DNA of 64,000 bases from Porphyridium purpureum (GCA_008690995.1 VRMN01000008.1:1-64000), one strand, 5' to 3'. Numbered from the stretch's first letter, positions 18,353-55,500 are shown. Notes: generated by a model not told the origin, from the letters alone. Program-made: numbers and translations.

Positions 18353-18490
18353 CGCAACCAATACTCGCGTTTCAACGCTGCCAACTTGCGCCAGCACGCT
18401 CGAGTTCTCCACGACTTCAAACCCTTTGAGGGCAGGGCGGAGTTGTCGAAGGGGTAGAAGTGTGTGTCTGTGCCTGAGTTGCGTGAGACG

Positions 18491-29882: not shown

Positions 29883-30875
29883 AGCAAGATTGCTCGCGCG
29901 CCTATTTCTCCACTTTGTTCAGCGGGGAGTGTACAGATACGGCGCCGTGCCAGCTCGACAAGCCGTTGAATACGAAGCCGTTCAGCCAATTTTCGCATCT
30001 TGTTTCCGCCTTCCAAAACAGCAATGCGTTTCAGCGCGATCGACGCGCGTTCCTCCTTGCAGCAGCGTGCTACGCCCGCAAAAGCACACCGCCTGGTGCT
30101 GCCAGCAACGAGCTGCCGGAGGGTCATTCACGTGGTCATCGTGTCGCGCGAGATGCCGCACGGACGAACGGTACGCCGAGCGTTGTTGACCCGCGTGATG
30201 TCGTTGTGAGTATGCAAGTCGCACTGCATTTCCCCCGCCGACATTCTCGCGCTCACCACCGCCGGTACCGATGCCAGCACCACCGCTGCCCGCCGCGCGT
30301 GACGGCATGATCCTCACTGAATGAATCATCGCGCTCCAGTTCTCACATTCCCACTCACACCACCACCACCATCCATCCATCCACCACGCCTTATCTCAGG
30401 GTCAAGGGTCATTCGCTCGGTTGATTCGCGCGAGGAATCTGTGTTTATATGGCCGGACGCTTACACAATACACAGCTCACTCCACGCTCCCCACCACAAC
30501 CATCCGACCGGCAGAAATTACTCACAAACATGGGCGCAGAAAAGGTCGCCGCACGAAAAACTTGAAAGCCGCGTACAGCGTTTTTTTTTTTGGTTTGGCG
30601 TCTTTCTTTCTTTTCGAGCGACTGCTCCGGCTCCACATCTGTCGGCCCCTCCCCGGGAGCAACAATCTTTTCTTTTTCTGTTCGGTCCTTTAATTTTTCC
30701 TGGATGTGTTTTTAACACTCAAAATCTGATTGATGGGTCATCGTCGTCTTTTGTAATAGAACCGAATCATACGAAGAACAAGAACGACTAGGAGAAGTAC
30801 TGGTGGTGGTGGTTGACTAGAACTGAGCCGGTAGTTGTAGTTAAGAGTAAAGAACAGCACATTGATAATAAGGCA

Positions 30876-31650
30876 TGGATTAAAAGTGTTCCGGTCCGAG
30901 AGACGCCCTGGGTGTACACCCGGAGGTACGGCGTCTCGGAATTGTTTGAGGTACAGGGGCTTTTTCGCCCACGTGGTTTTTTACCCTGTACCTCTGGTTT
31001 GTGCATTGTTGTCTTTCGCCCCGAGGAGCCGGAGTCGCGTGTCCGAGGGAAGCAGGAGCCGCTTGGCGGCCGGCCAGCACCCATTGAGCCGCTTGCTGAC
31101 GTGGCTGGCTGTGGCTTCGTTCTGTGGAACGAACGGAGGAAAGCCCAGCCTTTGGGAGAAATAATTTCTCCCTTCCGCGTCAAGGACAGCAAGGACGGCG
31201 GGGTATATAATGGGCGCGGGCCTGTGCGGTTCCCCGGATTTTCTTTAGAGCGGAAGAAGGAGAGGCAAGGGAGTAGGACACAGAGAATAAAAGAGGAGTT
31301 TGTTCTTTGGTGTCGGGTGCCTGGGCGTGGTCGTCGGAAGGCGTGGGGCCTTTTGCTGAGCCTGTGTAGCAGAGCCAGCAGCACATCGTGTCTGGGGGGT
31401 TTCGGTGCTCTTAGAGCACTGAAGGCAGACGGCGGCTTTGTCCGTTACGACACCCTGCCCCTGTCGAGACCGGTGCTGTCTGTGCCGACGCGAAAGGCAA
31501 TAGTAGAGGCCCTATACGTTGGATTTTCCACGCCCCGGGTATTCGTCGTCTGTGTTGTGTGCGTCGTGTTGCTGGGGTTCGGTCATCTGAGAAGGGTTGT
31601 GTCATCCGGGCTCGTGCGCTTGTCATCATCAAGCGTGCGAGAATTTAAAG
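30876..31650 (+). repeat. 5' LTR of outer element (775 bp)
   Basis: Matches 41521-42327 except for about 4 substitutions, a 1-bp indel and a 31-bp indel (counted by eye). TATATAA at ~31204. Ends are uncertain by 1-3 nt. Confidence 0.9.
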
Positions 31651-31662
31651 TGGTATCATCGC
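31651..31662 (+). other. Primer binding site (tRNA-iMet type) of outer element
   Basis: TGGTATCATCGC immediately after the LTR; the same 12-mer follows the inner element's 5' LTR. Confidence 0.85.
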
Positions 31663-31672
31663 ATCGGCGAAG

Positions 31673-32431
31673 ATGGATTCTGAGGGAATGAACGTGCAGG
31701 GCCTGCAGGGCGGCGCGTCGTGGATTGAAGCTTTCAACCAGCTTCATGCTCGTATCGGAGGACAAGAAATGATGATTGTGCAGCTGCAGGAGGGAAACCG
31801 CCTCTTGCAGGAGATGCTGCAGAGTGTGATGCATCAGGCATCTGTGCCAGCTGGTCCCGGCGAAACGGAAAGGACCGTTGCATCGCTGATTGGACGTAGC
31901 TTGAGGAAATACGACGGACAGCGCGACAAACTCGTTGTGAACGAGTGGTTGTCGAGGATGAAGCAAGACTTGGACATGTGCATGCCAGCTGGGGCGCTGG
32001 AGTCGCAGAAGGTGATCGTAGCGTCGCGCTTCTTTGAGAAGGATGCCGCGCTGTTGTGGGCAGCTCGCCCTGAAGAACAGAGGATGGCATTGGCCGAGTC
32101 CGGTTGGAATGCGTTCGCGAACTTCGTGCGGACGGCATTTGAGCCGCCGCAGGCATACCTGACTGCTCGAACGAACTTGTATCAGCTGAAGCAGGGCAAG
32201 ATGACTGTTGCTGAGTTTGAGCAGCGCCTGAGGATGGTGGCTCTGTCCGTGGATAATGTGACAGATGCCGAGCTCAACACCATCTTCACTCTCGGCCTGA
32301 AGGAGAAGCTTCGCCTTGAGGTGGCGCGTCAGGACACGAAGACGCTGGAAGAGTCGCTGAGGGCGGCGTTGGCTGCGGAGCAGGTTGGTAGGTTTGGAGG
32401 AGACATGAGGGAGGCTTTTCATGGCGCCTCT
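31673..32431 (+). pseudogene. gag: Outer element gag, N-terminal part (interrupted by Gypsy insertion)
   Basis: Retrotransposon capsid motifs (KYDGQRD, WNAFANFVRTAF, LYQLKQG, FTLGLK). The frame resumes after the TSD at 37915. Confidence 0.88.
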
Positions 32432-32734
32432 TGTTATCCGTTCGACCCCAGTCACCTAGAACGGTTCGGTTACTCCGAAACCGGTAAGCCGTTAAACCGG
32501 TAGACCGTTTAACCGTTTCTAGAAGCTTCTAGAGGTTCCAGAACCTTCTAGACGCGCGCAGAAATGCCAATCATTTGCATTGTCATTTCTCTTGGCGCCT
32601 TGCTGTCCCTAGCGGAAGTAAGGGTATAAAAAGGCGACGCGCCTGCCCGGACTAGCCGGTCAGGTCTTGCTCGGAGACAGAAGAGGTAAGAAGAGGAAGA
32701 AGAGAGAGAGAATAAAGGCACAGCATTGGTAACA
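32432..32734 (+). repeat. 5' LTR of inner Gypsy (303 bp)
   Basis: TGTTA...TAACA inverted termini, CCAAT at ~32567, TATAAA at 32625, AATAAA at 32711. Confidence 0.95.
32516..32553. promoter_or_regulatory. Heat-shock-element-like nGAAn inverted arrays in the Gypsy LTR (copy at 37691-37728)
   Basis: TTCtaGAAgcTTCtaGAg and TTCcaGAAccTTCtaGAc, about 70-110 bp upstream of the TATA box. Confidence 0.7.
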
Positions 32735-32736
32735 TT

Positions 32737-32748
32737 TGGTATCATCGC
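32737..32748 (+). other. Primer binding site (tRNA-iMet type) of inner element
   Basis: TGGTATCATCGC, 2 nt after the LTR end. Confidence 0.88.
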
Positions 32749-33301
32749 TGGTTACCTGGGGTTGCTCTAAGGTTCTCTTAGCGCTTCTCTGGGGTTGCCT
32801 GGGTGGGAGAGTCTGCGGGTAAGGGGGTTCGAGTAAGTCGATCCGGAGGGTGCGACGGGTGGAAGCGGGTCTCAGTCTTGGCTGTACGATAGGCCTAGGC
32901 CTTGACGGCGGACTCGCTCTCTGCCTTAGCACGTATTAGTAGGCAAGAGCCGTAACGGTCAGCCTTCACTAGGATTCATCCTAGTGTCGCACGACCACCT
33001 TTGCGAAGGTAGGCGCCGAACACCTCCATACAAGATCGCATCTATAATCCCCGCCCCAGTGCAAAGGCCCGGGCCGCTCCCCATCCAGCGCAACAGAGGA
33101 GGATTGCTGTGTGCTTTGTTGTGCGTGCATGAGAAGATTGCTGTGCGTGTGTGTGCGTGAGAGGACCGCTTCGTGTGTCGGTTTGTGTTCGTGAGGGCGA
33201 CCGAGCCCGTTCGTGGTGCGCGCAGCTGTTGGAGAAAGTGAGCATCGGAGGCTTGCTGTTTGTGTCGTTGTCGTCGTTGAGCGTGCTTTAGTCCAGAAAG
33301 C

Positions 33302-35917
33302 ATGGAGATTGATTCGGAGACGCTGGGACCACGTGGCCCGAAGGAGGCCCGTCTGATGAGGTTCGACGGGAAGCGTGACCTTCTGGTTGTGAAGACGTGG
33401 TTGTTCCAGGCGAGAAAGAAGATCTTGGGCCGGCTGTCGGAGAGCATCCACCCGGACGATTTGGAGAAACGTCTGCTTGCGGAGAGGCGTGCTGTGGACC
33501 TGGCATCAGACTATTTCGAGGGAGAGGCGCTTCATTGGTGGGTTCTGAACTGCGAGCGCTACCCGCAGGAGATCCCCACGACGTGGAATGATTTTGCTGC
33601 CCTCGTGAGTGCTCGGTTCACGCCGCAGGATTCGATCAGGCGTGCAAGGGACAAGTTGACGCGTCTTTCGCAGAAAGGCCCGGCCCATGCGTATGTGGCG
33701 GCTTTTCAGGACGCGGCACTTGTGATTCCGGACTTGTCGGACGCAGAAATGATGGACCGCTTTGTGAGGGGTCTGAAGCCCGAGGTCCGCTTGGAAGTGT
33801 ACAAGCGAGGAGTGAGCACGTTCGCGGAGGCTGCGCAGGTGGCGGTGGTCGTGGACGACGCCATTCATGCGACCCGCGGCGTGCGTGATTCAAGTGTGAG
33901 GACGCCATTTTTCGGTCGTGCAGCGCAGGAAGGACCTGTCCCGATGGAGCTGGGACATGTGCAGGGTCAGAGGCGTGTTCGTACCGAGCTCAAATGCTGG
34001 AATTGTGGAAGGCCGGGACACATCGCGAGGAAGTGTCCCGAGGCAAGGAAGACTATCCAGCAGCTGGAGGGAGACTCGCTGGAGTCAAAAAAACGAGGAG
34101 CTCGAGTAAAGAGGTTCCTCGGACAGTCAGAGGGAAAGGAGGCTCGCAGACGTTACGAGACCTCTAGGGGCGGCAATGAAGACCGCTGTGGTGGCCTTGG
34201 TAAGCCAAGGTCTGGCTGTCCGAAACCTTGTGGGCGAAACTCGAGCGCAAATCAGCCCGTGATCAAGGAACTTGGAGGGATGGGAGCTGCCATGCTTCTT
34301 CGAGTTCGAGGAAAAGTGCACAAGTCCGATGGAGAGGCCACGTTTTTGATTGACAGTGGCGCGACGGACAACTTCATGAGCGTGGACTTTGTGCTGAAAT
34401 CCGACGGCCTGAAGCATAAGGCGTCGTGGAAGAGAGATCATGTGACCCTAGCAGACGGGTCAGTATTGGAAACAGCCGGAGAAGTTTCCAATGTCAAGTT
34501 TGAACTGAGCGATGGGTACTCAGGGACCGCTACCTTTGCCATTTGCCGGATTGCGGGACAAGACGCAATCTTGGGCATGGAGTGGCTGAAGCGGGAGAAC
34601 CCAGTGATTGATTGGCAGTCTGGCATGTTGGCCTACGGAGAGAAGAAGGCCTGGAGCATGACGCAGATGCTGGTGCCACGGAAAGAGCTCCGTCGGCTGT
34701 TGAAGAGTCAGGAGGTAGAAGAGTGCTACCTCGGCGTGCTGAAAGGAAGGGAGGAGCCCTGTTCAGTGGAGCGCAAAGGAGATGACTCTGTGAGAAAGAT
34801 GCTCAAGGATTTCGAAAATCTGTTCGAGGAGCCACGTGGGCTGCCTGAGAGCCGAACAGTGGAGCATGTGATTAGGCTGAAAGATGAAAAGCCTGTGAGA
34901 GTGGGCAGGGTCTACCGACTGAGCCCTGCGGAGTTGAAAGTCCTCCGAGAGACTTTGGACGACTTGCTGGATAAAGGATTCATCCAGCCGAGTCAGAGCC
35001 CGTTTGGAGCACCCGTGCTGTTCGTGAAGAAGAAAGACGGCAGCATGAGGATGTGCGTCGATTATCGGGCGTTGAACGACGCAACTGTGAAGGACCGGTA
35101 TCCGTTGCCAAACATGGATGAGTTGCTGGATCGACTGGGCGCAGCTCATTGTTTTTCAAAGTTGGATTTGGCATCGGGATACCACCAGTTGCGTGTTCGG
35201 AGAGAGGACGTGCCGAAGACCGCGTTCCAGACCAGGTACGGACAGTTCGAGTTCCGTGTGATGCCGTTTGGTCTTTGCAACGCGCCGGCAACTTTTCAGA
35301 GGGCCATGAACGAGCTGTTTGCAGATCTGCTGGACAAGACCGTCATTGTCTACTTGGACGATATTTTGGTCTTTACCAAGGATAGGCAGTCGCATGCTGA
35401 GGTCCTGAAGGAAGTGTTGTCGCGCTTGCAAAAGGCGGGGTATCGGTTGAAGCGCAAGAAGTGCAGCTTCTTCGTTTCTGAAGTCGAATACCTGGGGAAC
35501 ATTGTCGGCAACGGTTGCGTGAAGATGGATCCACGGAAGGTGGAAGCTTTGAGAGATTGGCCAGTGCCAAAGACGGTGACGGAGTTGAGATCCTTTTTGG
35601 GAATGACAAACTGGTTTCGCAGGTTTGTCAAAGGATACTCTACCGTCGTGGCGCCGCTGACTTCGCTGTTGCAGAACGCAAAGTCGAAGAAGCAGCTGAT
35701 CGAACTGGGAGATGAAGGCAAGTCGGCCTTCGAGAAGATTGTGGGGATGTTGACGGAAGCGCCGGTGTTGGCCTTGCCAGACCCTGAAAAGCCATTTGAG
35801 GTGTACACGGACCGCTCCGAAGTCGCGGTGGGGGGGATGGCTGGCACAGGAAGGCAGACCGGTCGCGTTTACGTCAAGGAAGCTGCTGGACCGAGAGACC
35901 AGGTACAGCAGCTATGA
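33302..35917 (+). CDS. gag-pol: Gypsy Gag-PR-RT-(partial RNase H) polyprotein
   Basis: GPVPMELG, CWNCGRPGHIARKC (CCHC), FLIDSGAT, KKKDGSMRMCVDYRALN, MPFGLCNAPATFQ, YLDD. The reading frame is lost at the G-run near 35830. Confidence 0.93.
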   Translation: MEIDSETLGPRGPKEARLMRFDGKRDLLVVKTWLFQARKKILGRLSESIHPDDLEKRLLAERRAVDLASDYFEGEALHWWVLNCERYPQEIPTTWNDFAALVSARFTPQDSIRRARDKLTRLSQKGPAHAYVAAFQDAALVIPDLSDAEMMDRFVRGLKPEVRLEVYKRGVSTFAEAAQVAVVVDDAIHATRGVRDSSVRTPFFGRAAQEGPVPMELGHVQGQRRVRTELKCWNCGRPGHIARKCPEARKTIQQLEGDSLESKKRGARVKRFLGQSEGKEARRRYETSRGGNEDRCGGLGKPRSGCPKPCGRNSSANQPVIKELGGMGAAMLLRVRGKVHKSDGEATFLIDSGATDNFMSVDFVLKSDGLKHKASWKRDHVTLADGSVLETAGEVSNVKFELSDGYSGTATFAICRIAGQDAILGMEWLKRENPVIDWQSGMLAYGEKKAWSMTQMLVPRKELRRLLKSQEVEECYLGVLKGREEPCSVERKGDDSVRKMLKDFENLFEEPRGLPESRTVEHVIRLKDEKPVRVGRVYRLSPAELKVLRETLDDLLDKGFIQPSQSPFGAPVLFVKKKDGSMRMCVDYRALNDATVKDRYPLPNMDELLDRLGAAHCFSKLDLASGYHQLRVRREDVPKTAFQTRYGQFEFRVMPFGLCNAPATFQRAMNELFADLLDKTVIVYLDDILVFTKDRQSHAEVLKEVLSRLQKAGYRLKRKKCSFFVSEVEYLGNIVGNGCVKMDPRKVEALRDWPVPKTVTELRSFLGMTNWFRRFVKGYSTVVAPLTSLLQNAKSKKQLIELGDEGKSAFEKIVGMLTEAPVLALPDPEKPFEVYTDRSEVAVGGMAGTGRQTGRVYVKEAAGPRDQVQQL

Positions 35918-37487
35918 AGGTGAGCTCATGGCCGTCATTCACTGTCTGCGAGAGTTTCGACCTTATCTGTTCGGGGCAAAGTTTGTGCTTCATACGGATC
36001 ATGAGGCGTTGAAACATTTGATGACGCAGAAGGAGCTGAATGGCCGGCAAGCACGGTGGCTGGACTTTTTAGCCGAGTTTGATATCACAATCGACTATGT
36101 GAAGGGAAAGTCGAACGTGGTAGCCGATGCTTTGTCGAGGAAGCCAGAGTTACACGCGCTAGAGTACCAGGTTCGGTGTGATGAATTTGGTGCGGGTTTC
36201 CAGGCATTCGTGGGTTCGTACTCGAGTGACCCAGACTTTGGTCCTTTGATGGGGGATTTACCGACCCACCAAGGTTTTCGAACCGAAGCCGGGCTCTTGT
36301 ACTTGAGGAATCGCGTTTGCGTGCCGAGGAAGTTCAGAGAGCGTGTCATGCAGCTCCACCACGATATCCCGACAGCAGGGCACCGTGGAGCGGACACGAC
36401 TTATGCATCTTTGATAACTCGCTTCTACTGGCCAAAGATGAAGCGAGACGTGAGCCGTTTTGTGAAGACTTGTCACGCATGCCAAGTGACAAAGTCTGAG
36501 AATCGGTCGTTCGGAAAGCTGAAGCCCTTGTCGATCCCAGAAGGACCTTGGGTCGACATTTCGATGGACTTTGTGACAGAGCTGCCTCGGAGCGAAGGCA
36601 GCTGTGATGCAATCATGACTGTGGTGGATCGCTATTCGAAGATGGCGCTGTTTATCCCGACGCGCAAGGACTTGACAGCAAAGCGTTGTGCTGACTTGTT
36701 CGTGAAGCACGTCGTGAGCCGTTTCGGATACCCCAAGTCAATTGTATCGGACCGAGATCCGCTGTTTACGTCCACGTTTTGGCAGCAGTTGAGCAAGCGG
36801 GTGGGCATGAAGTTGGCTATGTCTACCGCCAACCACCCGCAGACTGATGGCCAAACTGAGCGAGTGAACCGCGTGATTCGGGAAATGCTCAAGTTGATGG
36901 CGACGAATAGTGGCTGGGTGCGAGACTTGCCGTTGTACGAGTTTGCGTACAACTCTGCACCAAGCAGTGCCACTGGATTCGCGCCGTTCAAAGTGGTATA
37001 TGGAAGGGATCCTTGGTTTCCACCGAGCGAAGGGTGGAGGCCTGCGCGCGACGGACAGACGAAGGACATGGCGGAGCACTGGTTTCGCCTGTGCAAAGTC
37101 CATGAAGAAGTCCGCGACAATTTGATCGAAGCCCAAGGGAGAATGCAGAAGTTCTTCGATCGAAGCAAGGATGCCCGGGAGTTTCAAGTTGGTGATCAAG
37201 TGTTGGTCACGGCGCCGCAACTGCGGCCGAACAAGAGTGATTTGGCGGCACCAAAGTTTCTTGGTCCGGTGCCTGTCATTGAGAAGGTAAGCTCGCATGC
37301 TTACCGAGTGGTTTTGCCCGAGGGTGTGGCTTGTCATGATGTTTTTCCGATCCAACATCTGAAGCCATACTATGGACGCGAAGACTACATGGCGGGGGAA
37401 AATGATGAAGAAGTACCCGACGAAATGCCGGCGTCCGATTCTGAGCCAGACTTGTTGAAAATTATCGAAGAGTCTGACTCTGAATGA
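35839..37487 (+). CDS. pol: Gypsy RNase H remainder plus integrase (frameshifted continuation of pol)
   Basis: LAQEGRPVAFTSRKL, TDHEAL, NVVADALSR, HHCC (HHD..GH..CHAC), ISMDFV, SIVSDRD, HPQTDGQTERVNR, GPY/F-like PKFLGP, acidic tail, no chromodomain seen. Confidence 0.92.
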
Positions 37488-37606
37488 CTTGGGTACTGTG
37501 AGAAGTTTGCTAGGCAGAGGTTTTCTCCCGGAGCGCGGGTTCCTCGAGCCAAGAATGCAACTTAGTTTGAAGTCTCGCCGAGACGTCGAGCCAAGAGGGG
37601 GGGAGA

Positions 37607-37909
37607 TGTTATCCGTTCGACCCCAGTCACCTAGAACGGTTCGGTTACTCCGAAACCGGTAAGCCGTTAAACCGGTAGACCGTTTAACCGTTTCTAGAAG
37701 CTTCTAGAGGTTCCAGAACCTTCTAGACGCGCGCAGAAATGCCAATCATTTGCATTGTCATTTCTCTTGGCGCCTTGCTGTCCCTAGCGGAAGTAAGGGT
37801 ATAAAAAGGCGACGCGCCTGCCCGGACTAGCCGGTCAGGTCTTGCTCGGAGACAGAAGAGGTAAGAAGAGGAAGAAGAGAGAGAGAATAAAGGCACAGCA
37901 TTGGTAACA
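37607..37909 (+). repeat. 3' LTR of inner Gypsy (303 bp)
   Basis: Identical by eye to 32432-32734 and preceded by the PPT. Confidence 0.95.
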
Positions 37910-37914
37910 CCTCT

Positions 37915-38112
37915 AGTCCAAACTACCGGAACAGCTCGTCGTATGTCGGGACGGCGCCAATGGATTTGGGCGTCGTGGAGAAACGCCAGCCGGAGAAGCG
38001 CAAGCGTGCGGACATGGGCAAAGTCAGATGCTACCATTGCGGGCAGCGCGGCCACATCAAACCCAATTGCCCAAAGAGGAATGGGCACTTGGCGGGAGGC
38101 CCGGAAAACTAA
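37915..38112 (+). pseudogene. gag: Outer element gag, C-terminal part (PMDLG + CCHC knuckle)
   Basis: My translation: SPNYRNSSSYVGTAPMDLGVVEKRQPEKRKRADMGKVRCYHCGQRGHIKPNCPKRNGHLAGGPEN*. It is in frame with 31673-32431 once the inner element and one TSD copy are removed. Confidence 0.9.
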
Positions 38113-41100
38113 AACCTCGAGGGAGAAGTTGGGAGGTGCACTCGAGGGGAACGGAACCTCCCGGGATGGGCTTTGTAGGTGAGGTCTGGCGCGCTGATGC
38201 GGCGTCAAGGTTGCTCTACAAGCGTGGAACTTTAGATGGCGAGTCTGTCCAATTTCTGGTGGACAGCGGAGCATCGCACAATTTTCTTGGATCTCGCTTT
38301 GTCGGCAGATTTGAAGGGCGCGAGAACGGAATGGTCAAGCTTGCGGGTGGGCAAAGTGTCTTAGTGCATGGCCCGGTGTTGCAGCATGTTGATCTTGGGT
38401 TCTGGAAAGGGCCGGTCAAGTTTTATGTCGGACCTCTGCAAATGGATGCAATTCTCGGGTGGGACTGGCTGAGTCGCGTGAACCCGAGGATTGATTGGCA
38501 GAGGGGTTCGATGGACTTGGGACTTGAAAATGTGGAAGATTGTGCGATGGTGAATGTCGTGGACGCTCTTTCCGAGTCAAGCGGAAATCAAGCGTACGAT
38601 GGAGAAGAGGAGAGTGCCAGTGAAGAGGTCGAAGGAAAGATGGCCGGGATGGAACATGCGTTGACTCACATGCCGATGCGGAATGATTGTGAGACGTGTG
38701 TTGTGGCCAAGATCAAGAGCCGACCAGCAAGAAGGCTGGAGAAGGACTTGTCCACTTTGTCGTTCAATGACGAAGTTGGGATCGACCTGGTGGAGCCCGG
38801 ACGTAACGTGGAAGCCATCGATGGGGCGAAGTACATACTGACGCACATCGATAGAGCGACGAGGTGGGCCACACTGGCAGGATTGAGAGCCAAAACGCAT
38901 ACGGCGGTTGCTGAAGCTTGGACAAGCGTGCAAGCCGGGCGAGGATGGCCAAAGGTACTGAGGACAGATGATGGAAACGAGTTCAGGGGAAATGTGAGCA
39001 ATTTGGTACGGGAGAATCTCGTGAAGCATGAGATTGGCGTCCCACATAGACCAAATAGCCACGCTGAACAGGAACGTTTCCATCATACTTTGAATCAGGG
39101 GGTACGAGCAAATCTCCTGCAGTCTGGGCTGGGAAAGCGGTGGTTTTTGCATGCCGCTCAGCATTTCGTCTTCATGTTCAATCGGCTGCACCCAGACAAG
39201 AGGTCTGGGAAGTCTCCGTATGAAATGAGGTACGGTGAGAGATGGAAGCGGGGGAAGGTAGCAGTACCATTTGGATGCAAGGTGGTGTTCAAGAATGATC
39301 AACCTGAGAACAAGTATGCACCCAGAGGAAAGATTGGAGTCCTTGTTGGAGTTGCGGAGCATCCGCTGGCAATCTGGGTCCTTCCTCAGGAGGAGTGGAC
39401 GAGTGCGGCACCGAGGCTGACTCGCACTCAGGACTTCAAGGCGTTCCCTGAAGTGTTTCCAATGCGGACTTTGGAAACAAGGGATGACGAGGAGGTCTCG
39501 GCACGTGAGGGTGAAATCGACTTTCACTCTAGGCAGGAAGAACCGGATAGTCAAGAGACTATGGTGTTGCCTACGAATACGGCCGAGGCGCGTGAATCCG
39601 GGAACTTGGAGGAGGATGTTCCCCTACCTGTTGGAAGAAGGGGGAAACGAAAACCCAGGGTATCTTGGAGCCGGGAAGAGGATCAGGCCATCATGGATGG
39701 CTTACGGCTCTTTGGCTGGGGGAAGTGGGAAAGAACTCTGCAAGAATACAAGGCAGTGTTCCGCGATTCAAGAAACGGAAAGGATGTGCGAGCCCGGGCT
39801 CATAATATGGGCCTCTCGGAGGAAAATTGGAGGCAACGCGCAGGAGTTGCTCCAGAAACACCGCAATTGAACTTGACAACTTTGTTGCAGACGAGCCAAG
39901 CTCTGGCTTCTTCGGCTGGAAGAGAAGCCATGCAAAAAGAAGTGGACTTGATGATTCGATTCAAGGTATGGGATGAGCAACCTATTTCAAGGGAAGAAGC
40001 TCTCAAGGTCCCAGGCGCACGATTTGTGCGGACACACTTTATATTCGGATTGAAGTTCGCTGAGCTTCCGGAGGAGTTTCGCAAGGTCAAGTGTCGGCTT
40101 GTTGCTGGTGGAAATAGGATTTGGGATGCCTCAGGGAAGGTCACTCAGGATGTGTTTGACTATGAGGTGCCCGCGGGCCTGTCTGCAATCAGAATGTTGA
40201 TAGCTTTGGCCGCGATCCTGGGATTGAAAATCGTGTCGTTCGATGTGACGTCGGCGTACTTACACGCTGACTTGTCAGGACCACCGACGTTTGCCATGTT
40301 GCCCCCTCATGTTCCAGGAGGAGGTGATGGACTTCTCGTTCGCTTGAGAAGGGCGCTTTATGGCTTGCCAAGAAGCGGGTCTGACTTTTCCATCGATGCC
40401 CGCAGAAAACTTCAGAAGTTCGGGTGGGATTTGATTCACGGCGAGAAGAATGTATACGTGAAAAAGATGGCGGGAAGTGCATCTGTTGCACTCTTGGCCT
40501 TGTATGTCGATGATGGCCTGCTCGCGTGTGCCGAGAAGGATCGGGGTGAGATATTTCGAGAGTTGAGGTCAGAGTTCCTCATTGAGAAGGAGCCAGAAGT
40601 CCTCTCGGAAGGTACCCCGTTGAGGTTCCTAGGTCTCACGATCTCGGAGTCGGCGGCACGGCTTTCGTTGGATCATGATCACTACCAAGCTTTGGTGGTG
40701 AAGGAATTTGAAGAAGAGCTTGGGCAGGTGCTGCGAGCGGTGAAATCACCGGGTGAGAAGATGAATGCTGACGCTGTATTGGATGTTCAAGTCGAACATG
40801 GGCATCTGAAAATACGCGAGCATGTTGGGCGGCTGCTGTGGTTGGCCAGGACGGTCAGACCGGATATCTCCTATGCAGTTGGAGTGGTGGCTCGGTATGT
40901 GGATAGCTGGAACGTCGCAGCTGAGAGACTCCTGGTTCGCGTCATGCAATACTTGAAGGTGCCTCGTGAGCCACTTGAGTATTTGCGGATGACGTCATTG
41001 AAGATCAGCGACGTAAGCGTCTTGGGTTATGCTGATGCCGACTTTGCTGGATGCCCGGAAACGCGCAAGTCAACGTCTGGGAGAGTGACGTACTTGGTCG

Positions 41101-41528
41101 CGGGTGGAAACAAGTATCTGGTCGATTGGAGCTCCAGAAGGCAACGCTTTGTGAGCTCTTCGACCTCTGAGTCTGAGATGGCCGCTCTGGAAGAAGCGGT
41201 GCAGTTGTCTCTGTTTCCGGCATTGTCGTTTCTTCGAAGCGTGCAAGAGGGGGATTATGCGTTGACCCTGCTCTGTGATAGTCAAGTTGTTCTCCGTGCG
41301 GTCGAGATGGGCTACTCGCCAAAGTTGCATCACATGGCAGTGACCAGAGCCACGGACTTGGCGTGGATACACCAAGTTTGCGAGAAGCAAAAGCTGGTGA
41401 GATTGGAATATGTGAGGACGGGGGAAAACGTGTCCGACTTGATGACAAAACCTTTGTTTCCGGAAGGTCATATCAGGTGTTGGACTATGTTACGCGTCCC
41501 TCAGATCGGAAGGAGGAGCATGGATTAA
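38100..41528 (+). CDS. pol: Outer element Pol: aspartic protease - integrase - Myb - Copia-type RT - RNase H
   Basis: FLVDSGASHNF; HALTH..CETC; D(LV)..RTDDGNEF..QERFH; SWSREEDQAIMDGLRLFGWGKW; KCRLVAGG, FDVTSAYLHA, LRRALYGL, YVDD; GYADADFAG..RKSTSG, SESE, CDSQ, NVSDLMTKPL. The ORF is intact (track 38028-41528). Confidence 0.93.
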   Translation, partial: PGKLKPRGRSWEVHSRGTEPPGMGFVGEVWRADAASRLLYKRGTLDGESVQFLVDSGASHNFLGSRFVGRFEGRENGMVKLAGGQSVLVHGPVLQHVDLGFWKGPVKFYVGPLQMDAILGWDWLSRVNPRIDWQRGSMDLGLENVEDCAMVNVVDALSESSGNQAYDGEEESASEEVEGKMAGMEHALTHMPMRNDCETCVVAKIKSRPARRLEKDLSTLSFNDEVGIDLVEPGRNVEAIDGAKYILTHIDRATRWATLAGLRAKTHTAVAEAWTSVQAGRGWPKVLRTDDGNEFRGNVSNLVRENLVKHEIGVPHRPNSHAEQERFHHTLNQGVRANLLQSGLGKRWFLHAAQHFVFMFNRLHPDKRSGKSPYEMRYGERWKRGKVAVPFGCKVVFKNDQPENKYAPRGKIGVLVGVAEHPLAIWVLPQEEWTSAAPRLTRTQDFKAFPEVFPMRTLETRDDEEVSAREGEIDFHSRQEEPDSQETMVLPTNTAEARESGNLEEDVPLPVGRRGKRKPRVSWSREEDQAIMDGLRLFGWGKWERTLQEYKAVFRDSRNGKDVRARAHNMGLSEENWRQRAGVAPETPQLNLTTLLQTSQALASSAGREAMQKEVDLMIRFKVWDEQPISREEALKVPGARFVRTHFIFGLKFAELPEEFRKVKCRLVAGGNRIWDASGKVTQDVFDYEVPAGLSAIRMLIALAAILGLKIVSFDVTSAYLHADLSGPPTFAMLPPHVPGGGDGLLVRLRRALYGLPRSGSDFSIDARRKLQKFGWDLIHGEKNVYVKKMAGSASVALLALYVDDGLLACAEKDRGEIFRELRSEFLIEKEPEVLSEGTPLRFLGLTISESAARLSLDHDHYQALVVKEFEEELGQVLRAVKSPGEKMNADAVLDVQVEHGHLKIREHVGRLLWLARTVRPDISYAVGVVARYVDSWNVAAERLLVRVMQYLKVPREPLEYLRMTSLKISDVSVLGYADADFAGCPETRKSTSGRVTYLVAGGNKYLVDWSSRRQRFVSSSTSESEMAALEEAVQLSLFPALSFLRSVQEGDYALTLLCDSQVVLRAVEMGYSPKLHHMAVTRATDLAWIHQVCEKQKLVRLEYVRTGENVSDLMTKPLFPEGHIRCWTMLRVPQIGRRSMD
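38103..38162 (+). other. Candidate -1 ribosomal frameshift signal (G_GAA_AAC + H-type pseudoknot)
   Basis: Slippery heptamer at 38103-38109 just before the gag TAA. Stem 1 is CCTCGAG 38115-21 / CTCGAGG 38141-47; stem 2 is GGGAGGT 38131-37 / ACCTCCC 38156-62. Pol is in the -1 frame. Confidence 0.75.
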
Positions 41529-42327
41529 AAGTGTTCCGGTCCGAGAGACGCCCTGGGTGTACACCCGGAGGTACGGCGTCTCGGAATTGTTTGAGGTACA
41601 GGGGCTTTTTCGCCCGCGTGGTTTTTTACCCTGTACCTCTGGTTTTGTGCATTGTTGTCTTTCGCCCCGAGGAGCCGGAGTCGCGTGTCCGAGGGAAGCA
41701 GGAGCCGCTTGGCGGCCGGCCAGCACCCATTGAGCCGCTTGCTGACGTGGCTGGCTGTGGCTTCGTTCTGTGGAACGAACGGAGGAAAGCCCAGCCTTTG
41801 GGAGAAATAATTTCTCCCTTCCGCGTCAAGGACAGCAAGGACGGCGGGGTATATAATGGGCGCGGGCCTGTGCGGTTCCCCGGATTTTCTTTAGAGCGGA
41901 AGAAGGAGAGGCAAGGGAGTAGGACACAGAGAATAAAAGAGGAGTTTGTTCTTTGGTGTCGGGTGCCTGGGCGTGGTCGTCGGAAGGCGTGGGGCCTTTT
42001 GCTGAGCCTGTGTAGCAGAGCCAGCAGCACATCGTGTCTGGGGGGTTTCGGTGCTCTTGGAGCACTGAAGGCAGACGGCGGCTTTGTCCGTTACGACACC
42101 CTGCCCCTGTCGAGACCGGTGCTGTCTGTGCCGACGCGAAAGGCAATAGTAGAGGCCCTATACGTTGGATTTTCCACGCCCCGGGTATTCGTCGTCTGTG
42201 TCGTGTGCGTCGTGTGGTTGTGTTCTCTGTGCTGTGTGCGTCGTGTTGCTGGGGTTCGGTCATCTGAGAAGGGTTGTGTCATCCGGGTTCGTGCGCTTGT
42301 CATCATCAAGCGTGCGAGAATTTAAAG
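41521..42327 (+). repeat. 3' LTR of outer element (807 bp)
   Basis: Direct repeat of 30876-31650, 32 bp longer. The pol stop codon lies inside it. Confidence 0.9.
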
Positions 42328-47912: not shown

Positions 47913-49331
47913 TTAGTCTTGAGTGCCAGGCGGAGGCTGAGTGAGCGTTTCTGGGAATGAGTTTTCGGCCCAGTGTGGCGGCGTGAGAGGCGGAAGGTAG
48001 TCGTGTCGATGCCGCGAGCAGGACTGCATCATCCGCTCGGCCTTGTTGACGTCGCCGTGCGCAAGCGCAATGTACGTGTACCGGCATTCGTCGCATGTCG
48101 CCCCAATCTGCTGGGCGCGCGCCTCCTTGCCGCGCTTGGGCACGTTCACCTTGCGTACACCGACAAGGCGCCGCACGCCGTCTGCAGCTGCTGTACGTGC
48201 ATTAGGGCTTCGAGAGGCTCGGTAGCCCGCTTTACGCGGGCCCGTGAAGATGGGCTCCGCTCCAGGTGCCGCAGTGGATAGGCCGGCCTCTCCCGTCAGC
48301 GCTGAGGGAGCGCCGTCGAATCCTTCGACGTCTTGTGTCTCTCCCCGCGAGCTCGGCTTGGGCGGTGCCGCATTCATCCGAATACGCTCCCGCAGTGTGG
48401 GAGTCTTGGGTCTCTGCAAGACCGCCTGCTTATCTGCAGACCCATGTGTTCCGGTCCCGCTATCTCTACTTGGCAAGGGTCCAGCTGGCGCCGCCACTGC
48501 CGGCGCACCTGTCACATGCTGCTCTTCGGGATGCAGGGACGGTGGCGGTTCTTCTGTTGAGCAGTCGGAATTTTGTGTATACAAAAGCTCATCTCGATTG
48601 ACTGCTGGCCGCCTGTCTGCCGGTGTCAGTCTCAACGGCGATTCTGCCGGAGCGTCCACATGCATGACCGTCTCATCCGCGGCGATCGTTGTGCAGCCCG
48701 CCACGCGGTTCCGCATCGCATCGTCTCCAGGACATCCGGTATTCAAGCGAGCAATCCCGTCAAACTCCAACTTTTGCCGAACCGGATGACCATCCAATTC
48801 ATCCATCGGTACCCGCACGGCACCTCTTGCAAACGACATTGGAGCAGCCGCGCGGTCCGGATGAGCTGCAGGTCGAACGGATGATTTGGGCTCTTCTACC
48901 AAGTTTTCGTTTCGTGCTTCCTTGCTCGCTCGCAGTGAATTCCCTGTTGGAGTCCGAGCGGACGCCACCAAACTGGCCTCTGGCACCGCACATAAGGCCT
49001 CTGTCTCGTTCGCGTTCGTCATATTCCCTGCCTGGTGGACGCGATCGTTCATTCCACACTTTGCGAGCCATTTACCATCTACCTGACGCCATTTTTCCTG
49101 AACATCCAGCGCGCGCCCTGTTCTAGTCTCTGCCTTCTGGCCCTGCCCATGCACAAACTGCTCCAACAGAACGAGCTGCTGAGCGCACAATCTCTCCAGC
49201 GCGTCCATGCGCGCATGCACCTTTGCGAATTCCTCTGTCAGGCTCATGCCCTGCAAAGCTTGTTCCATCATCTTTCGTGCGCAAAATCCGACCAGTGCAT
49301 CTCCATCACGCGGCGCTTTCGCTGCCATCAT
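47913..49331 (-). CDS. COM1: CtIP/Sae2/COM1 DNA-end resection factor
   Basis: C-terminal Sae2/CtIP signature: GATCDECRYTY (CxxC), CSRHRH (RHR), PPLTPPHW..FP. N-terminal coiled-coil-like segment. ATG at 49331. Confidence 0.82.
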   Translation of the reverse strand: MMAAKAPRDGDALVGFCARKMMEQALQGMSLTEEFAKVHARMDALERLCAQQLVLLEQFVHGQGQKAETRTGRALDVQEKWRQVDGKWLAKCGMNDRVHQAGNMTNANETEALCAVPEASLVASARTPTGNSLRASKEARNENLVEEPKSSVRPAAHPDRAAAPMSFARGAVRVPMDELDGHPVRQKLEFDGIARLNTGCPGDDAMRNRVAGCTTIAADETVMHVDAPAESPLRLTPADRRPAVNRDELLYTQNSDCSTEEPPPSLHPEEQHVTGAPAVAAPAGPLPSRDSGTGTHGSADKQAVLQRPKTPTLRERIRMNAAPPKPSSRGETQDVEGFDGAPSALTGEAGLSTAAPGAEPIFTGPRKAGYRASRSPNARTAAADGVRRLVGVRKVNVPKRGKEARAQQIGATCDECRYTYIALAHGDVNKAERMMQSCSRHRHDYLPPLTPPHWAENSFPETLTQPPPGTQD

Positions 49332-49500
49332 TCCTGCGTCCTCGCGCACTCTCTTTCCCTCTCTCCCCGTCTCTCTTTCTCTAGCTTCGACTTGGCCTCT
49401 CCCCGTGAATGCGCCACAGGTTCTCGAGTTAAGACACAACTGGGAGCAGGAGGAGAGGAACAAGACCGGGGCGGAGCACAAGGTTGATGAACGGGGTAAG

Positions 49501-52500
49501 ATGGTCGCATCAAGTCCACAGCCAGCGCCGTTATGCTTCACGGAACTGTACGCGCAAATCCAGCAATGGGTCGTGGCTTGCGCGGATCAAGATGAAGATG
49601 CGGAGCGCGGAAAGCGACTAGACGAGTTGTTCGCGGATCACACGCTGGCGTTGCGTAATCTAGTCGCGAAAAGTGTGCTCGCACTATCGAATCATGTAGA
49701 TCAGCATGCCCGTGAGTCTCCTCCCGCTCGAATCTACTTCCGAGAATCAAGAGGCTCACCGGAGCAGAATCAGCAAAAGTCGCTGGCGCCTGGCGTCCAT
49801 GCTTACGTCGTTGAGATTACGAACGCGTTCAACTTGAAATATCAGGAAGCAACCACCTTGCTGTTTGATTTCTTAGCTTTCGCGTACGCCCCGCAGATCG
49901 ATTTGCTGCGCGGGAAGGTCCATCGACACCTTCGTCAGACGGTCGACCATTTGGACACGAACGAATTGGCGGCGCTGGCGCCCATGTTTAAGCTGGCCGA
50001 GTGGCAAGAGCTGGACACTATTTTTGGATTCAAGTGCTTGGCACTCATCTGCACAACGGCCAGGGAAGAGTCAACGAACAGTGCCGCGGTTGTCGCGTGT
50101 CGCCAGTTTCTGTCCAAAAATGAACGTATCGCAACCGACGCTTCGGAGGCGCTGCGCTCAGTTTCGTGGTCAAAATCCGCTGCAGAGGTGCGTTCAGCTG
50201 GACCCGGTGGACTTTCCCGTACCGGTGTCGCTCAGTTTCTCTTTGAATTTGCTGTCGAGCTATTGCGCAGCAGCGAATGTTCAGGAAATGACCTGGTCTC
50301 ATTTATGCGTGCAGCGCTTACGTACGACCAGACTGCCATGCACTCGTCGGCAGAACCAGATGGCAGTGCATTTGGTCTTGTTTTTGATCTGGTGGTGGCC
50401 GCATGTCTGATCAACGCCATGAATCTCGACCAATTGGTGAGCGCCGCGGATTTGGCATCACGGTCCGATCTGACGGAGGAACCAGATCAAAGCACCATCT
50501 CAAGCGACTCTACTCTTCTGACGCCGGAGATGCAGCAGCAGTTACGGCTCAGCGTCTTTGAGGAAGAGCACATTGCGCAAATCAACTCATTGCTGGATGA
50601 GCACGAGCAAGAAAGCGGCCCGCAAAAAAGCGGCCTGTTTGGTTCACTTTTGCTCGCGTGGGCATCTTATCTGAGAGCTTGCGCCATAGTGCTGCCTGCT
50701 GGTACAAAAGATACCATCAGCCGTGCGCAAAGATATCTGGAAATCGCCATTGACGAGTGCAATGTCTTCGAGTGGCTGGATAGGAGTCTAAATCACCTGT
50801 CGCAGTTGGGTGGGCTCTTCCTTGCGGTTTCTTGTTCGCGTGAGGTGTGTGCGGCATTTGCAGGTTTGGTGTGCTTGTTTGCAGACACGCACCCGCTGCT
50901 AGACCTGTTTCGAGGCGCACGACTCGTTCGGTTGCCCGTTTTCTGCTCAGTCGTGGGTCAGGTCATGAAGGTGGACGCAGCGGCGTGTCAGCTGATGTGG
51001 AGCAGGGAGACGCGTCTCAGCATGCGAATGCGTGGGCTCAATGCTCTTCTGCGGTATGGTATTCTTGTATTTCCGCACAACGCTTTGCCTTTACTCAAGT
51101 TGCTTGCAGGCATTGCGGCGGATTCCTTGACTGCTCAAGTCGCGCAGGAACTTCTTCGCACCGGTCTGACGACGCTCACCACAGTGGCACCAAGTCCGCC
51201 AGATATCTTTCTTGATTCCGCCGTGCCTGAGGATGAGCCGGCCTTTGCAGGCGCCATGGAGTCCGACATTAACTTCAGAGAGGCGGTGAATTTGTTGGGA
51301 GGGCTGTGTGAATCAGAAGTTCAGCAGCGCGTGCTGTTAAAGCAAACATATCGAGTCTTTAGCACCGGAATCGTACCGGGCGCAACAGCAAACGAGAAGG
51401 ACGTGTGGATCATGCGCGGCTCGGCGGGTATGGCGGCCGCAGCTGGGGATGTCGACCTGATTATTTGGCATAGTGTGTGGAATGGGTGGATGATTGTGCT
51501 CGCGATCCTTCACGAGTGGGATAACGTTGTGTCGTCACTCATTGCGACAGGCTTTAACCATGCCAGCGTTGATCCGTCGTGGGTGGTGGCGTCGCTTGAC
51601 CTGGTTGCGCGTGTGGCTCACGAGATTGCCTCCAGTCAACAGTCAACTTCTGGCTTTGTATGTGACGTTGACGACGAGCTCATTCTTCGCCTAATCGTTA
51701 GTACACTGGCGGTGCGTGAATCCGAGTCTGAATCACTGGGTATACCTCTCATCTTGGAAAAGCTGTTTGCTGCGTTGAACAAACTGTTTGACCTCGGCAG
51801 CCGCCTTCGGAAAGAGCGTATTCTTCGTCGTATTTTCGGTTCCGACTTAACGTGGCGTGATCACGTATTGCCAGACTTGCTCGCCCGAGGTTGGAAAGAC
51901 AACACACTACACCAAGTCACGCTCTTGCTATCCATGGTGCGTTCGTACAAAGATATGGTGCGCGATTCCTTTGCAAACAAATCCGATAATGAAAGTGCTC
52001 ATGCGGATCCGATCGTGCGAGGTACGTTGACATTTACTCTGGGTAGTGCTTTGCCATGGTGGCTTCGATTGCTCGACAATCTTCATTTTAAGCAGCAACA
52101 GCACGGCTTGCGTGGCACCTTTGCGACTGGTTTCCATTCTTCAGGGCAGAGTCCATCGCAGAATATATGGGACGTTCCGCACGTAGCATTCGAGCTACTG
52201 GATGGCTTCCGAAGCTACAGTTCGGTTTTAGACCACTCGCACGTGCTCGCATTGTGCTTACATCATACTTTGCACGCATTTCACACCGGTGGTGGTATTC
52301 TGGTTTCATTGCCATCGTTGTCCTTTGTTGGTTGCCTGTTTGCCCTGCTACGGTTCTGGCGAAACGCCTTGAGATGGATTTATACGGGGCTTGTCTTTGG
52401 CACCATATCTCAGCAACGTGCGAATGTCGCTCTGTCGTACTTGCAGCAAAGCTCTGTGGTCTGCCCCGTGCTGGCTCAGATGTGCGCAGGCCTCGGGCGT

Positions 52501-55500
52501 GGCTTTCTGGCCGTGAAAACACAGCATGCTGCGGGAGCTGAGCATAATGATCTGCAGTTCCTGCGAAGTGCGAGTGCCGAATGCTTAACCTTGCTTTGCA
52601 AAATTTTTGCCTTTGGGAGTGAAATTGCGATCGGTCCTGGCCAAAGTTCGTATGGTATTGGCGATAGCGTGAACTCGATGATGCTTATTTCGATCTCTCC
52701 GCATTCGCAGGAAGACTTCATGATGGAACAAATGACAAGAGGGCTTATATTGGTCTTAGAAAATGATTCAGAGAGGTGCGAGTCGGCACCCTTGTTGGAG
52801 TTCTTGGATGCGTCTGTGGCTACAGATCAGAGTGCGATTATGCGTGCGCTCATCCATCCCAAGCTTCTTCAGGTGATGGGGACGCATGTGGAACCCCAGC
52901 ACGGCTTAAAAGTAGAAGAGATGTACGACGGCTCGATTCTCAAGGCCGTATTTGTGCGGGCTAACGTCATCGTGAGTGCTTTTGAAACGATGAATCAAGA
53001 AGAGCTAGTGCGGGCCCACAGGCGCGTAGCTCGGTTGCTAGCGGAATTAGGAGGCATCATGACCTTGGTCCGCAGCGTATGGGACCGCCTCGGTCCCATT
53101 TGGCTGTCAGCCTTGTGGGATGCATGCGGTGTGCGTGCTTTGCTAGCACGCGCCTTGGAGATACTGAGTTCGTTCGCGTGCCACGTTGCTGGTTCATCTT
53201 CTCCTGCCACTTTACACGCAGATTCCTTGGACTTGAACGAGCCTGCGCTTCTCGTCGCCGAGCTTGCGCATGATGTCATGTTCTTGCTTTGCGATTGCGT
53301 GGCTGCTGGTAGTTTCTATGTGAATTCTTCAGAAGCTCTGACTTCATCAACTCAGGAGCCTAATGCTTCGGACGCGAGGAGTGCGTGGCGCCGCATTTGC
53401 AAGTGGTTGGAAGCTAGTGAACCTTCCGCGGCGGGATCTTGGCGCCATTTACTTGATTTCCTCGCCGAATCGCTGGCCTCGGAACTCAAGCTGAAAGATG
53501 CCTTTCAGAGAGGCTTAGTTGATGAGATCGAAGACATTGAGCGTGGCGGTAGCGTACTAGGGCTCCTCGAAGCCGACTCACAGCTTCGAAGCACTGTCGA
53601 AATTTTTCTTTCGGGCAGTGACAGAAACGACACTGTTGGTGCAGAAGTCTCTGCTCCGCTTGATCTCGCAGCGGGCGAGTCGGATCTGCAGTCTTTCTTT
53701 GCAAGTAGGCCATTTCTGTTTTGTGATCGTCGCACGCTTGTTCACATACGCCGTCTCATGACTGTTGAAGGGAAAAGGAAGCATGGCAGCGGAGTGAGGG
53801 AGGGCACGAATGGCTTGCCGCTTCCGTTGATGCTCGGTCCCATGTTCTTTCGAATTCGTTTGCAGTCCTTCGCTTCATGCTCTACGATGTTCCGCGTGTT
53901 CGTCACGGCCATGGCCTGCTTTGACCCGAAAGAAGGCGGTTTGAAGCGAGGCTTAATGGTTCGACTTGACTGTTCCCCTCCTCGCCCGGCTCTTCCTAGC
54001 CGTTTAGCCATAGAAGTGCCTGCATTTTCGCTGGGGGACAGTGGTGCCCCGGCCGCGACAAAGTGTGCGTCCCCAACCAGTGCTTGGCTACGGATCATGG
54101 CACTTCGTTGCATCCATCTGGTGAGTGAGTTTTCCGGCGGTATCGAGCATATAGTACACGCTTCTAATGCACTCAATGAGTGGCTTGAACTAGCTCATTT
54201 ACTTTTGATGAGTAGTCGTGATGTTGATGACAACATCATCGGCGCTGATGCGCGTTTTCCTCGGTCTGCTAGTCAGCTTTCGGTGCCTCTCCGACAAGCG
54301 AGCCGGACGACAACCGAACTTTGTCGCTGGATGTCGGAGCGACGCCGCGTGGGCGCGATTGACTCAGCCGTGGGACGGCCTGAATTATCTACGTTGGAGA
54401 AGCTGGTCGTGCTTATCGGTGCCCTGGTGAATCGTGGCGCTATTGACACTGAAGCACGCCACGCTGTGTCCCTTGCCTTATTTGCAACCATACATGAGCT
54501 TGAAGGCAGGTACATGGACGAAAATGTTTCAATGGTTGGACATCGCGGCCAGATGGATCAGCACGATGCTATTCGAGCGCGCGCATTAGACATCTTATCT
54601 GTCCTTTCTTTGCTTGGGACCAACTCTGGACACGTTTCAGGTAGCGAGGTTGACTTGAAAGCTCAGAGTGAAATAGAAAAGCAGGAAGCTGACCGAACGC
54701 GCAATTTGGCCGCGACGGTGGCGCTGACTGCGGATGTGATGCTGCACGTTGTCAGGCTCATGACTAAGGCGGACAAAACGGTGTTTACGTGTAATGAAGA
54801 AGATGAAAGCAGAAAATTGCTATTGAGCGCTCTCGGATGTCTTGAATGTCTGTTTGCTGGAGATGCTGAGAGTAGCACGGTTGGTCGACGCGCAGGCCTG
54901 CATCTGGTACTCGATTTTTTGTCAAGAACTGGCGACTGTGTGCTAGTGTTTCCAAAGCTTGCACAAGGTGGCGTTGTTTACGATGCCGACACTATGGAGC
55001 GAAGTATTTGGCTGGACATTTGGTGGATGTACTTGCGCATTACAACAGATGCTTTGTTGAGTGTGGGGGAAGGAAACATACATAGACTCTCCCATGGTGT
55101 AGCAGAATCATGCTTTCGTATGGGTACGACGCTTTGCGACTGCACGGACGTGTTTATTCTTCAGCCACAGTTCTCTCTGCGAGCGCTGACTTTAGCTCAG
55201 ATTCAAAACGCGGAGCACGCTAGTGCGTTTTGCTGGGCACTTGTTTCGTGCTTTGGTACTAATGAGACCGGCGCGAAGTTAAGGCGCAAGACCAACAATG
55301 TCAATCTGACGGAGAGTGCAGGCGTTTTTGATCGTATTGGCTCGTGCATGGTTGGTTTGGTGTACCAGACGTATCGCTTGCTGCGCGCGGAGCCGCTAGA
55401 AAGATGGGTCCGGCCAGTATCCGCTCTAGAAATTCAAAGCGCATTGCAGGATGAAGCTGGGCTTGAGGCGGCGTCGGATGTAGACTTTGCGGATGGGACC

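Follow-up and report, generated by a model that had tools for sequence, protein, structure and literature searches.

A predicted Myb-like domain between integrase and reverse transcriptase in Copia-order LTR retrotransposons of Porphyridium purpureum

Results

A 64,000-nucleotide stretch of the Porphyridium purpureum genome (GCA_008690995.1, VRMN01000008.1:1-64000), hereafter the window, was analysed. It contains an LTR retrotransposon with a Myb-like domain in its Pol protein, and this copy is surrounded by housekeeping genes. On the plus strand the window also holds an ArsA/GET3-type ATPase gene with two fused ATPase domains (18458-20689) and an open frame of 2387 codons with no Pfam match (49183-56346). 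The features of the retrotransposon are listed below, with their basis in brackets where one applies.

30874..31650, plus strand: 5' LTR of the Myb-bearing element, 777 bp, 5'-CATGG...TAAAG-3' (genomic junctions)
30874-30878, 31646-31650, 41519-41523 and 42323-42327: LTR end pentamers, 5'-CA...AG-3'
31651..31658, plus strand: primer-binding site TGGTATCA, abutting the 5' LTR (sequence)
31673..32431, plus strand: 5' part of gag, Retrotrans_gag/Ty3_capsid, Gypsy-type, interrupted by a nested element (Pfam, local matches)
32432..37909, plus strand: nested Ty3/Gypsy element with a CCTCT target duplication (LTRs, Pfam)
32432-32734 and 37607-37909, plus strand: LTRs of the nested Gypsy element, identical, 303 bp, TG...CA
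37915..38112, plus strand: 3' part of gag with MDLG motif, CCHC knuckle and TAA stop (compare P0052)
38103..38109, plus strand: slippery heptamer G GAA AAC, pol in the -1 frame
38208..38516, plus strand: aspartic protease, Gypsy-type, DSG at residue 116 of the Pol ORF (Pfam, local matches)
38655..39464, plus strand: integrase with HHCC finger, core and SH3-like domain (Pfam; matches Copia-type integrases only)
39465..39632, plus strand: acidic linker, poorly conserved
39633..39815, plus strand: basic arm and single Myb-like three-helix domain (first Trp at 39666, end of helix 3 at about 39809)
39870..41006, plus strand: reverse transcriptase (RT), Copia-type RVT_2, YVDD at residues 863-866 (RVT_2, 60.6 bits)
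41007..41528, plus strand: RNase H, the Pol stop codon lying inside the 3' LTR
41508..41518, plus strand: polypurine tract GGAAGGAGGAG (sequence)
41519..42327, plus strand: 3' LTR, 809 bp

The LTR ends at CATGG and TAAAG were defined by three 5' and three 3' junctions, seen in runs X1 and X14 as well as in the window, and they are not the TG...CA bounds typical for Ty1/Copia. The primer-binding site is presumably of the initiator tRNA-Met type. The element is a young LTR retrotransposon; its 3' LTR differs from the 5' LTR by 3 substitutions and 2 indels. The Gypsy element nested in gag must be very recent, since its LTRs are identical; its gag-PR-RT and RNase H-IN parts lie in different frames, with the break around 35750-35920. 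Because this insertion cuts gag, the window copy cannot make Gag, while its pol is still open. The 3' part of gag corresponds to the C-terminus of the uninterrupted Gag of the same family (P0052). The gag stop codon directly follows the slippery heptamer and pol reads in the -1 frame, which points to a likely -1 frameshift between the two genes; no significant RNA structure was detected downstream of the slippery site (z -0.51). In terms of word content only, two runs on record as RNA contained 0.64 and 0.59 of the words of the element.

In a local set of 48 proteins, the best matches of Gag and protease outside their own family were to the nested Gypsy element (E 4e-22 and 1e-11, respectively), while integrase, RT and RNase H matched Copia-type proteins only and not the nested Gypsy. 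The integrase has the finger residues H247, H251, C258 and C261 and a D290-D351-(35)-E386 core. The Pol order is that of Ty1/Copia (PR-IN-RT-RNase H) and not that of Ty3/Gypsy, PR-RT-RNase H-IN with an RVT_1-type RT. Instead of the Copia-type Gag and protease (Retrotran_gag_2, Pol_BBD), Retrotrans_gag, Ty3_capsid and gag-asp_proteas were found. Judged by these domain matches, the element is a chimera of a Gypsy-type Gag and protease with a Copia-order IN-RT-RNase H. The initial annotation, in which the element was read as Copia, overlooked the Gypsy-type Gag and protease as well as the Gypsy nested in gag.

No target duplication was found in the flanks of the window copy (30874-42327). Run X5 contains the 3' junction of the window, whereas in run X1 the 3' flank of the window is preceded by sequence absent from the window; the insertion is therefore polymorphic between samples. 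The two flanks of the window copy probably do not represent one original site. Two insertions have probably been combined in this copy, either by recombination or in the assembly, with the TOP2 side perhaps stemming from one and the F-box side from the other. Passages of a diatom study explain intact-looking elements without duplications by recombination or joining of insertions (PMC2806351). Six flanks from three sources (5' TAAGG, AAAAA and CAGGG; 3' TTTAT, GCGAG and TCCTT) displayed no obvious common motif, and six are far too few to decide targeting. No telomere-type array was detected in the window or in these six short flanks, with the reservation that the repeat of the host may differ. 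A search with the LTR-start pattern gave 0 matches in metagenome contigs and 0 in the genome contigs searched.

The initial annotation had proposed a TRF/telobox-like Myb domain at 39645-39812 (plus strand). The peptide was translated as quoted, plus one residue at each end, and its position, in frame after the acidic linker at the integrase C-terminus and before the RT, was confirmed by the stop-free Pol ORF (37917-41528) and by the Pfam order of aspartic protease, integrase core, SH3-like domain, Myb and RVT_2 RT. A single Myb repeat was also borne out: the isolated 56-residue piece matched the Myb_DNA-binding profile PF00249 with 30.2 bits (E 4.8e-7), above the curated cut-off of 24.4 bits. 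In the context of the whole Pol the score is 23.5 bits, slightly below that cut-off, which is why the domain is unannotated. Among PDB sequences the top match of the Myb piece was human TRF1 (E 4.6e-4), and its top clusters in the Atlas were Myb (0.90-0.91). With a profile made from the other eight retrotransposon Myb domains described below, the slot between integrase and RT of the window element reached 52.8 bits, against at most 1.8 bits for 17 Myb-less slots and at most 2.6 bits for 200 shuffles. A frameshifted or misread host Myb gene was considered as a source of the domain and is ruled out by the open frame and by recurrence in nine Pol families.

Proteins nearly identical to the window Pol were named Porphyridium purpureum, and gene model P0049 appears to be the window locus. 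The family cluster has 17 members. Of the 15 listed, probably including the model of the window copy itself, 12 have a whole Myb; the remaining three are a model that consists of Gag alone, one that ends where the Myb starts and one that is missing the first half of the domain. The common substitutions in the Myb region (R581S, S583A and D617N) all lie outside the core. Thirty Pol variants were classified, leaving aside 56 further rows of the variant table; synonymous changes account for 21 of the 30 and nonsynonymous ones for 9, and a single variant, S583A, lies in the Myb. The copies are too alike for selection on the Myb to be measurable within the family.

The closest sister family (P0003) is 75% identical to the window family in the integrase and 70% in the RT. 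In all 14 listed members that reach the slot, a short coiled coil replaces the Myb. The sister family counts 16 + 2 gene models (the 2 in the P0001 cluster) versus 17 + 3 for the Myb family; given this similar copy number, the Myb is optional and mobility does not depend on it. The combination of Gypsy-type Gag and/or protease with a Copia-order IN-RT-RNase H is also seen in this sister family.

A query consisting of the Myb and the RT N-terminus was searched against 1.84 billion representatives. It gave 83 matches, 80 of them new; 50 contain an RT, many of them fragments that end short of the slot, and 30 are Myb only. The Myb stands directly before the RT in eight of the 50 (P0079, P0080, P0081, P0084, P0086, P0088, P0093 and P0098), all from P. 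purpureum. In leave-one-out profiles each of the nine domains scored 11.6-52.8 bits, the weakest being P0098 and P0086/P0171, over a background of at most 3.3 bits for the 17 Myb-less slots and at most 7.5 bits for shuffles. A search with the family profile returned 12 matches, namely the nine Porphyridium Pol proteins and three Myb proteins without RT. Neither this search nor one with the Myb alone revealed a Myb-Pol fusion outside P. purpureum, an absence that is weakly supported because the searches were word-indexed. With the Pol as query, metagenomes gave three distant loci (27-31% identity over the RT) and no retrotransposon Myb match, and viral contigs gave no loci.

The RT-RNase H of the eight other Myb families is 27-37% identical to that of the window. 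For the six families with enough length, identity to the window was 25-44% in the Myb, 33-38% in the RT, 29-37% in the RNase H and 8-24% in the linker before the Myb. On these figures the Myb is about as conserved as the RT in the six families compared. Between distant families the Myb domains share 14-45% identity, and 61-70% among three close ones; both Trp residues, the helix spacing and a basic helix 3 are kept while the flanking linkers are barely alignable. This pattern across the alignment indicates that the domain is under constraint in nine families.

A quick RT-RNase H tree, built from 32 rows, put the Myb families at three positions inside a single divergent Copia clade, where Myb-less relatives stand between them; support for the backbone is only 84-94. 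P0109 lies without a Myb inside a Myb-bearing clade. An ancient gain with losses and an exchange of cassettes would both fit this tree. The slot holds a Cys finger in P0004, P0077, P0089, P0091, P0095, P0097, P0099, P0109, P0110 and P0137, both finger and Myb in P0079 (partly), P0093 and P0098, and a bare linker in P0076. The Cys/His pattern of the finger, CxxC...CxxC...H...C...CxC, has no Pfam match and occurs also outside Porphyridium; the finger is a second candidate targeting module. Gag type varies independently of slot content, being Gypsy-type in the window family, P0081, P0098 and P0168, and Copia-type in P0076, P0162 and P0171. The latter three, close relatives by RT, have Copia-type Gag and protease, which amounts to module exchange between superfamilies. 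Other domains were observed in this context as well: the Copia-type Pol P0122 has a strong RNA 2'-phosphotransferase Tpt1/KptA domain (103.6 bits), and the Copia-type Pol P0100 has a weak zf-CW match before the RT.

The origin of the domain was examined in a Myb tree, which included 28 of the 30 Myb-only matches (P0123 and P0153 were left out) and the three proteins from the family-profile search. Eight of the nine retrotransposon domains clustered with five non-telobox, RT-less Myb proteins (support 96). Monophyly of all nine was not rejected (p-AU 0.28, 61 columns).

A structure model predicted from the single sequence was poor (pLDDT 56.7), and Foldseek gave nothing usable with it. A better one was obtained by alignment-guided folding using the nine retrotransposon Myb sequences alone. 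The best of five such models had a pLDDT of 85.2, with helices at residues 14-27, 32-38 and 49-58; the other four had 73, 60, 59 and 58, so that one in five reached 85. With the better model no Foldseek match had E <= 0.001, though the top rows were the TRF1 Myb with probability 1.00. The three-helix model superposed on the TRF1 Myb with Z 8.5 (rmsd 1.3 A over 51 residues), a modest value for a small helical domain, followed by Tbf1 (Z 7.0), c-Myb R2 (Z 5.8) and SANT domains (Z 4.5-5.3). The best single-domain PDB match of the nine-family profile was S. pombe Tbf1 (33.5 bits).

Two Trp residues are invariant across the nine families, and the third-Trp position is Ala in seven of them, as it is in S. 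pombe Tbf1. The replacement is therefore a family trait, and decay of helix 3 is ruled out as its cause. Both caveats of the initial annotation, that the third Trp had diverged and that the window has no telomeric arrays, were correct as descriptions.

In the passages of the TRF1 study on DNA contacts, the bases are read by K421, D422 and R425, and the phosphate contacts include R415 and R423 (PMC2377444). Residue equivalences were taken from an ungapped register of helix 3. The window has R/A/H at the positions of K421, D422 and R425. Over the nine families the K421 equivalent is Arg in six, the D422 equivalent is never Asp (residues A/S/R/Q) and the R425 equivalent is variable (H/V/Q/E/R), with Arg in two. 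The equivalents of R415 and R423 are basic in all nine, an Arg of the R423 type being possibly in part structural. Arm and core are net positive in seven of the nine domains, with a basic arm and helix 3 of net +3, and acidic in two families (P0088/P0162 and P0086/P0171). The telobox label of the initial annotation thus holds for the predicted fold, which is nearest to TRF1 and Tbf1, and not for the function: since the base-reading triad is replaced, the domain is telobox-like in build and yet no telobox. The backbone-contacting arginines are kept, which makes DNA binding likely, with another or a loose specificity. The likely ligand is double-stranded DNA, for which the preference would be loose or directed at something other than telomeric repeats.

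Discussion

The reading that we favour, and to which we give about an even chance, is that the mature integrase ends with the Myb, which would bind DNA and tether the integration complex to target DNA with a preference that is not telomeric. The protease would cleave Pol after the Myb and leave it on the integrase; this cleavage site is suggested by the conserved RT N-terminal block, which begins about 20 residues later. The domain would then contact double-stranded DNA through its basic arm and basic helix 3, and as an optional tether it would help the integration complex to capture target DNA. It may also have a role in target choice, as the chromodomains at integrase C-termini and the Myb of the non-LTR elements R2 and R4 would suggest by analogy. 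The similar copy number of the Myb-less sister family and the lack of a common motif in the six flanks weigh against targeting.

A further step, which we put forward only tentatively, is that the integrase Myb targets by reading DNA sequence directly, as an LTR counterpart of the Myb of R2, and that the slot is an exchangeable addressing cassette, giving each co-resident family its own address within a small and gene-dense genome. The cassette could be a Myb, a Cys finger, a coiled coil or nothing, and the address would come from the family-specific residues of helix 3.

The variability of the D422 and R425 equivalents among families could also be read in another way, namely that the Myb fold acts as a SANT- or TERB1-like module that binds a host protein or histone and so tethers the complex to chromatin indirectly. 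The two acidic families and the SANT matches of the model would agree with it, as would the weak zf-CW match (14.3 bits) in the same slot of P0100, a distant relative. There is a precedent in TERB1, whose TRF-like Myb with a replaced triad is described, in the passages concerned, as able to lose DNA binding wholly (PMC8867601). However, the basic arm and helix 3 in seven of nine domains speak against a protein-binding module, and DNA-binding Myb domains come first in both the structural and the profile comparisons. We regard this explanation as rather unlikely.

Somewhat less probable still is that the domain binds the LTRs or cDNA ends of its own element, where it would aid intasome assembly or regulate transcription with no part in target choice. 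The LTR ends are non-canonical, and family-specific helix-3 residues would suit family-specific LTRs; on the other hand, no 6-8-mer of the LTR is repeated beyond shuffles, and the Myb-less sister manages with a closely related integrase.

We see little chance that the domain was taken from a host Myb and now persists as a neutral passenger or a mere spacer, whose basic arm could be a nuclear localisation signal. Its lack in the sister family and in P0109 fits such an origin, and a recent cassette exchange between co-resident families could mimic conservation, as the Myb domains of the window and P0079 are 45% identical and the RT-RNase H of the same pair 35%. Against this, the Trp pair, the spacing and the basic helix 3 persist between distant families at 14-45% identity, and drift over such a distance would have erased the fold. 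Finally, it is highly improbable that the domain is a true telobox directing insertion to telomeric repeats, for although TRF1 and Tbf1 are the best PDB matches in sequence and structure, the triad is R/A/H, the copy sits among housekeeping genes, none of the six flanks is telomeric and eight of nine domains group with non-telobox Myb proteins.

The favoured reading, a DNA-binding Myb on the integrase, would be of interest for several reasons. To our knowledge, the integrase targeting modules of LTR retrotransposons act by way of host proteins or histone marks; for non-LTR elements, a Myb that reads DNA is described. If true, the conserved Myb would offer an LTR element with a DDE integrase a novel means of selecting its target or keeping hold of it, and would be a natural fusion of a DNA-binding domain with an integrase. 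The sister family provides a built-in control in the same genome, since it lacks the Myb while its integrase is 75% identical and its copy number similar, and for this reason the targeting question can be put to the test from the existing assembly. The mixture of Gypsy-type and Copia-type Gag and protease within one Copia-type Pol clade blurs the boundary between the superfamilies.

The architecture, which was new to the initial annotation, is a conserved Myb-in-Pol arrangement in a known kind of element and apparently undescribed. In the full-text literature searched, which left most subscription journals, Repbase and GyDB outside, no description was found of a Myb or SANT domain in the Pol of a Copia or other LTR retrotransposon, or of a Gypsy-Gag/Copia chimera. 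No title on Porphyridium elements concerned the window family.

Compared with known systems, the element resembles Ty1/Copia (Pseudoviridae) in its PR-IN-RT-RNase H order, RVT_2 RT, Copia-type integrase and RNase H, primer-binding site and polypurine tract. It differs in the Gypsy-type Gag and protease, in its -1 slippery site and separate reading frames for gag and pol, in the 5'-CA...AG-3' LTR ends and in the Myb between IN and RT. Among red-algal Copia elements, passages of an earlier study name the GalEa-like CoPorcru1/2 from Porphyridium cruentum, and PyRE10G from Porphyra yezoensis (PMC3587641). No row of the RT-RNase H tree is labelled GalEa. PyRE10G is said to be a Copia element with a Gypsy-like integrase, whereas the window element has a Copia-type integrase and a Gypsy-type Gag and protease.

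The Ty5 targeting domain and chromodomains tether the integrase to chromatin indirectly. Like Ty5 and the chromoviruses, the window element has a small extra module at the C-terminal end of its integrase, a place where passages of one paper locate the chromodomain of chromoviruses (PMC7998251); in contrast, its module is a predicted Myb helix-turn-helix, internal in Pol, and its targeting role is putative. The same paper ascribes an N-terminal Myb or SANT/Myb-like domain to R2 and R4/Dong, and reports for R2 that the Myb guides insertion to a specific site (PMC7998251). These are likewise retrotransposons that bear a Myb, but they are non-LTR elements with a restriction-like endonuclease, unlike the window element with its LTRs, its DDE integrase and no fixed target seen.

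The likeness to TRF1, TRF2 and the Tbf1 proteins of S. pombe and yeast lies in the predicted fold, the longer loop before helix 3 and the phosphate-contacting arginines, and for Tbf1 also in the Ala at the third Trp. The window Myb differs from them in that the Lys/Asp/Arg triad is replaced, a dimerisation domain is lacking and the domain is fused to Pol.

Capture of a host-type domain in frame in Pol is also known from KnitGypsy-Dnmt3 and SymbioDIRS-Dnmt3, described as having taken a DNMT into Pol in passages which also state that the Copia elements of Symbiodinium lack DNMT (PMC5890265). Among the distant RVT_2 proteins P0029, P0030, P0034 and P0035 of the present search, three have a PPC-containing stretch before the RT that resembles a cytosine-methyltransferase motif but is not called by Pfam. 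At the C-terminus of P0035 there is a weak DNA_methylase match (21.9 bits). The module of the window element differs from those of KnitGypsy-Dnmt3 and SymbioDIRS-Dnmt3 in being a predicted binding module and not an enzyme, carried by an element of Copia order.
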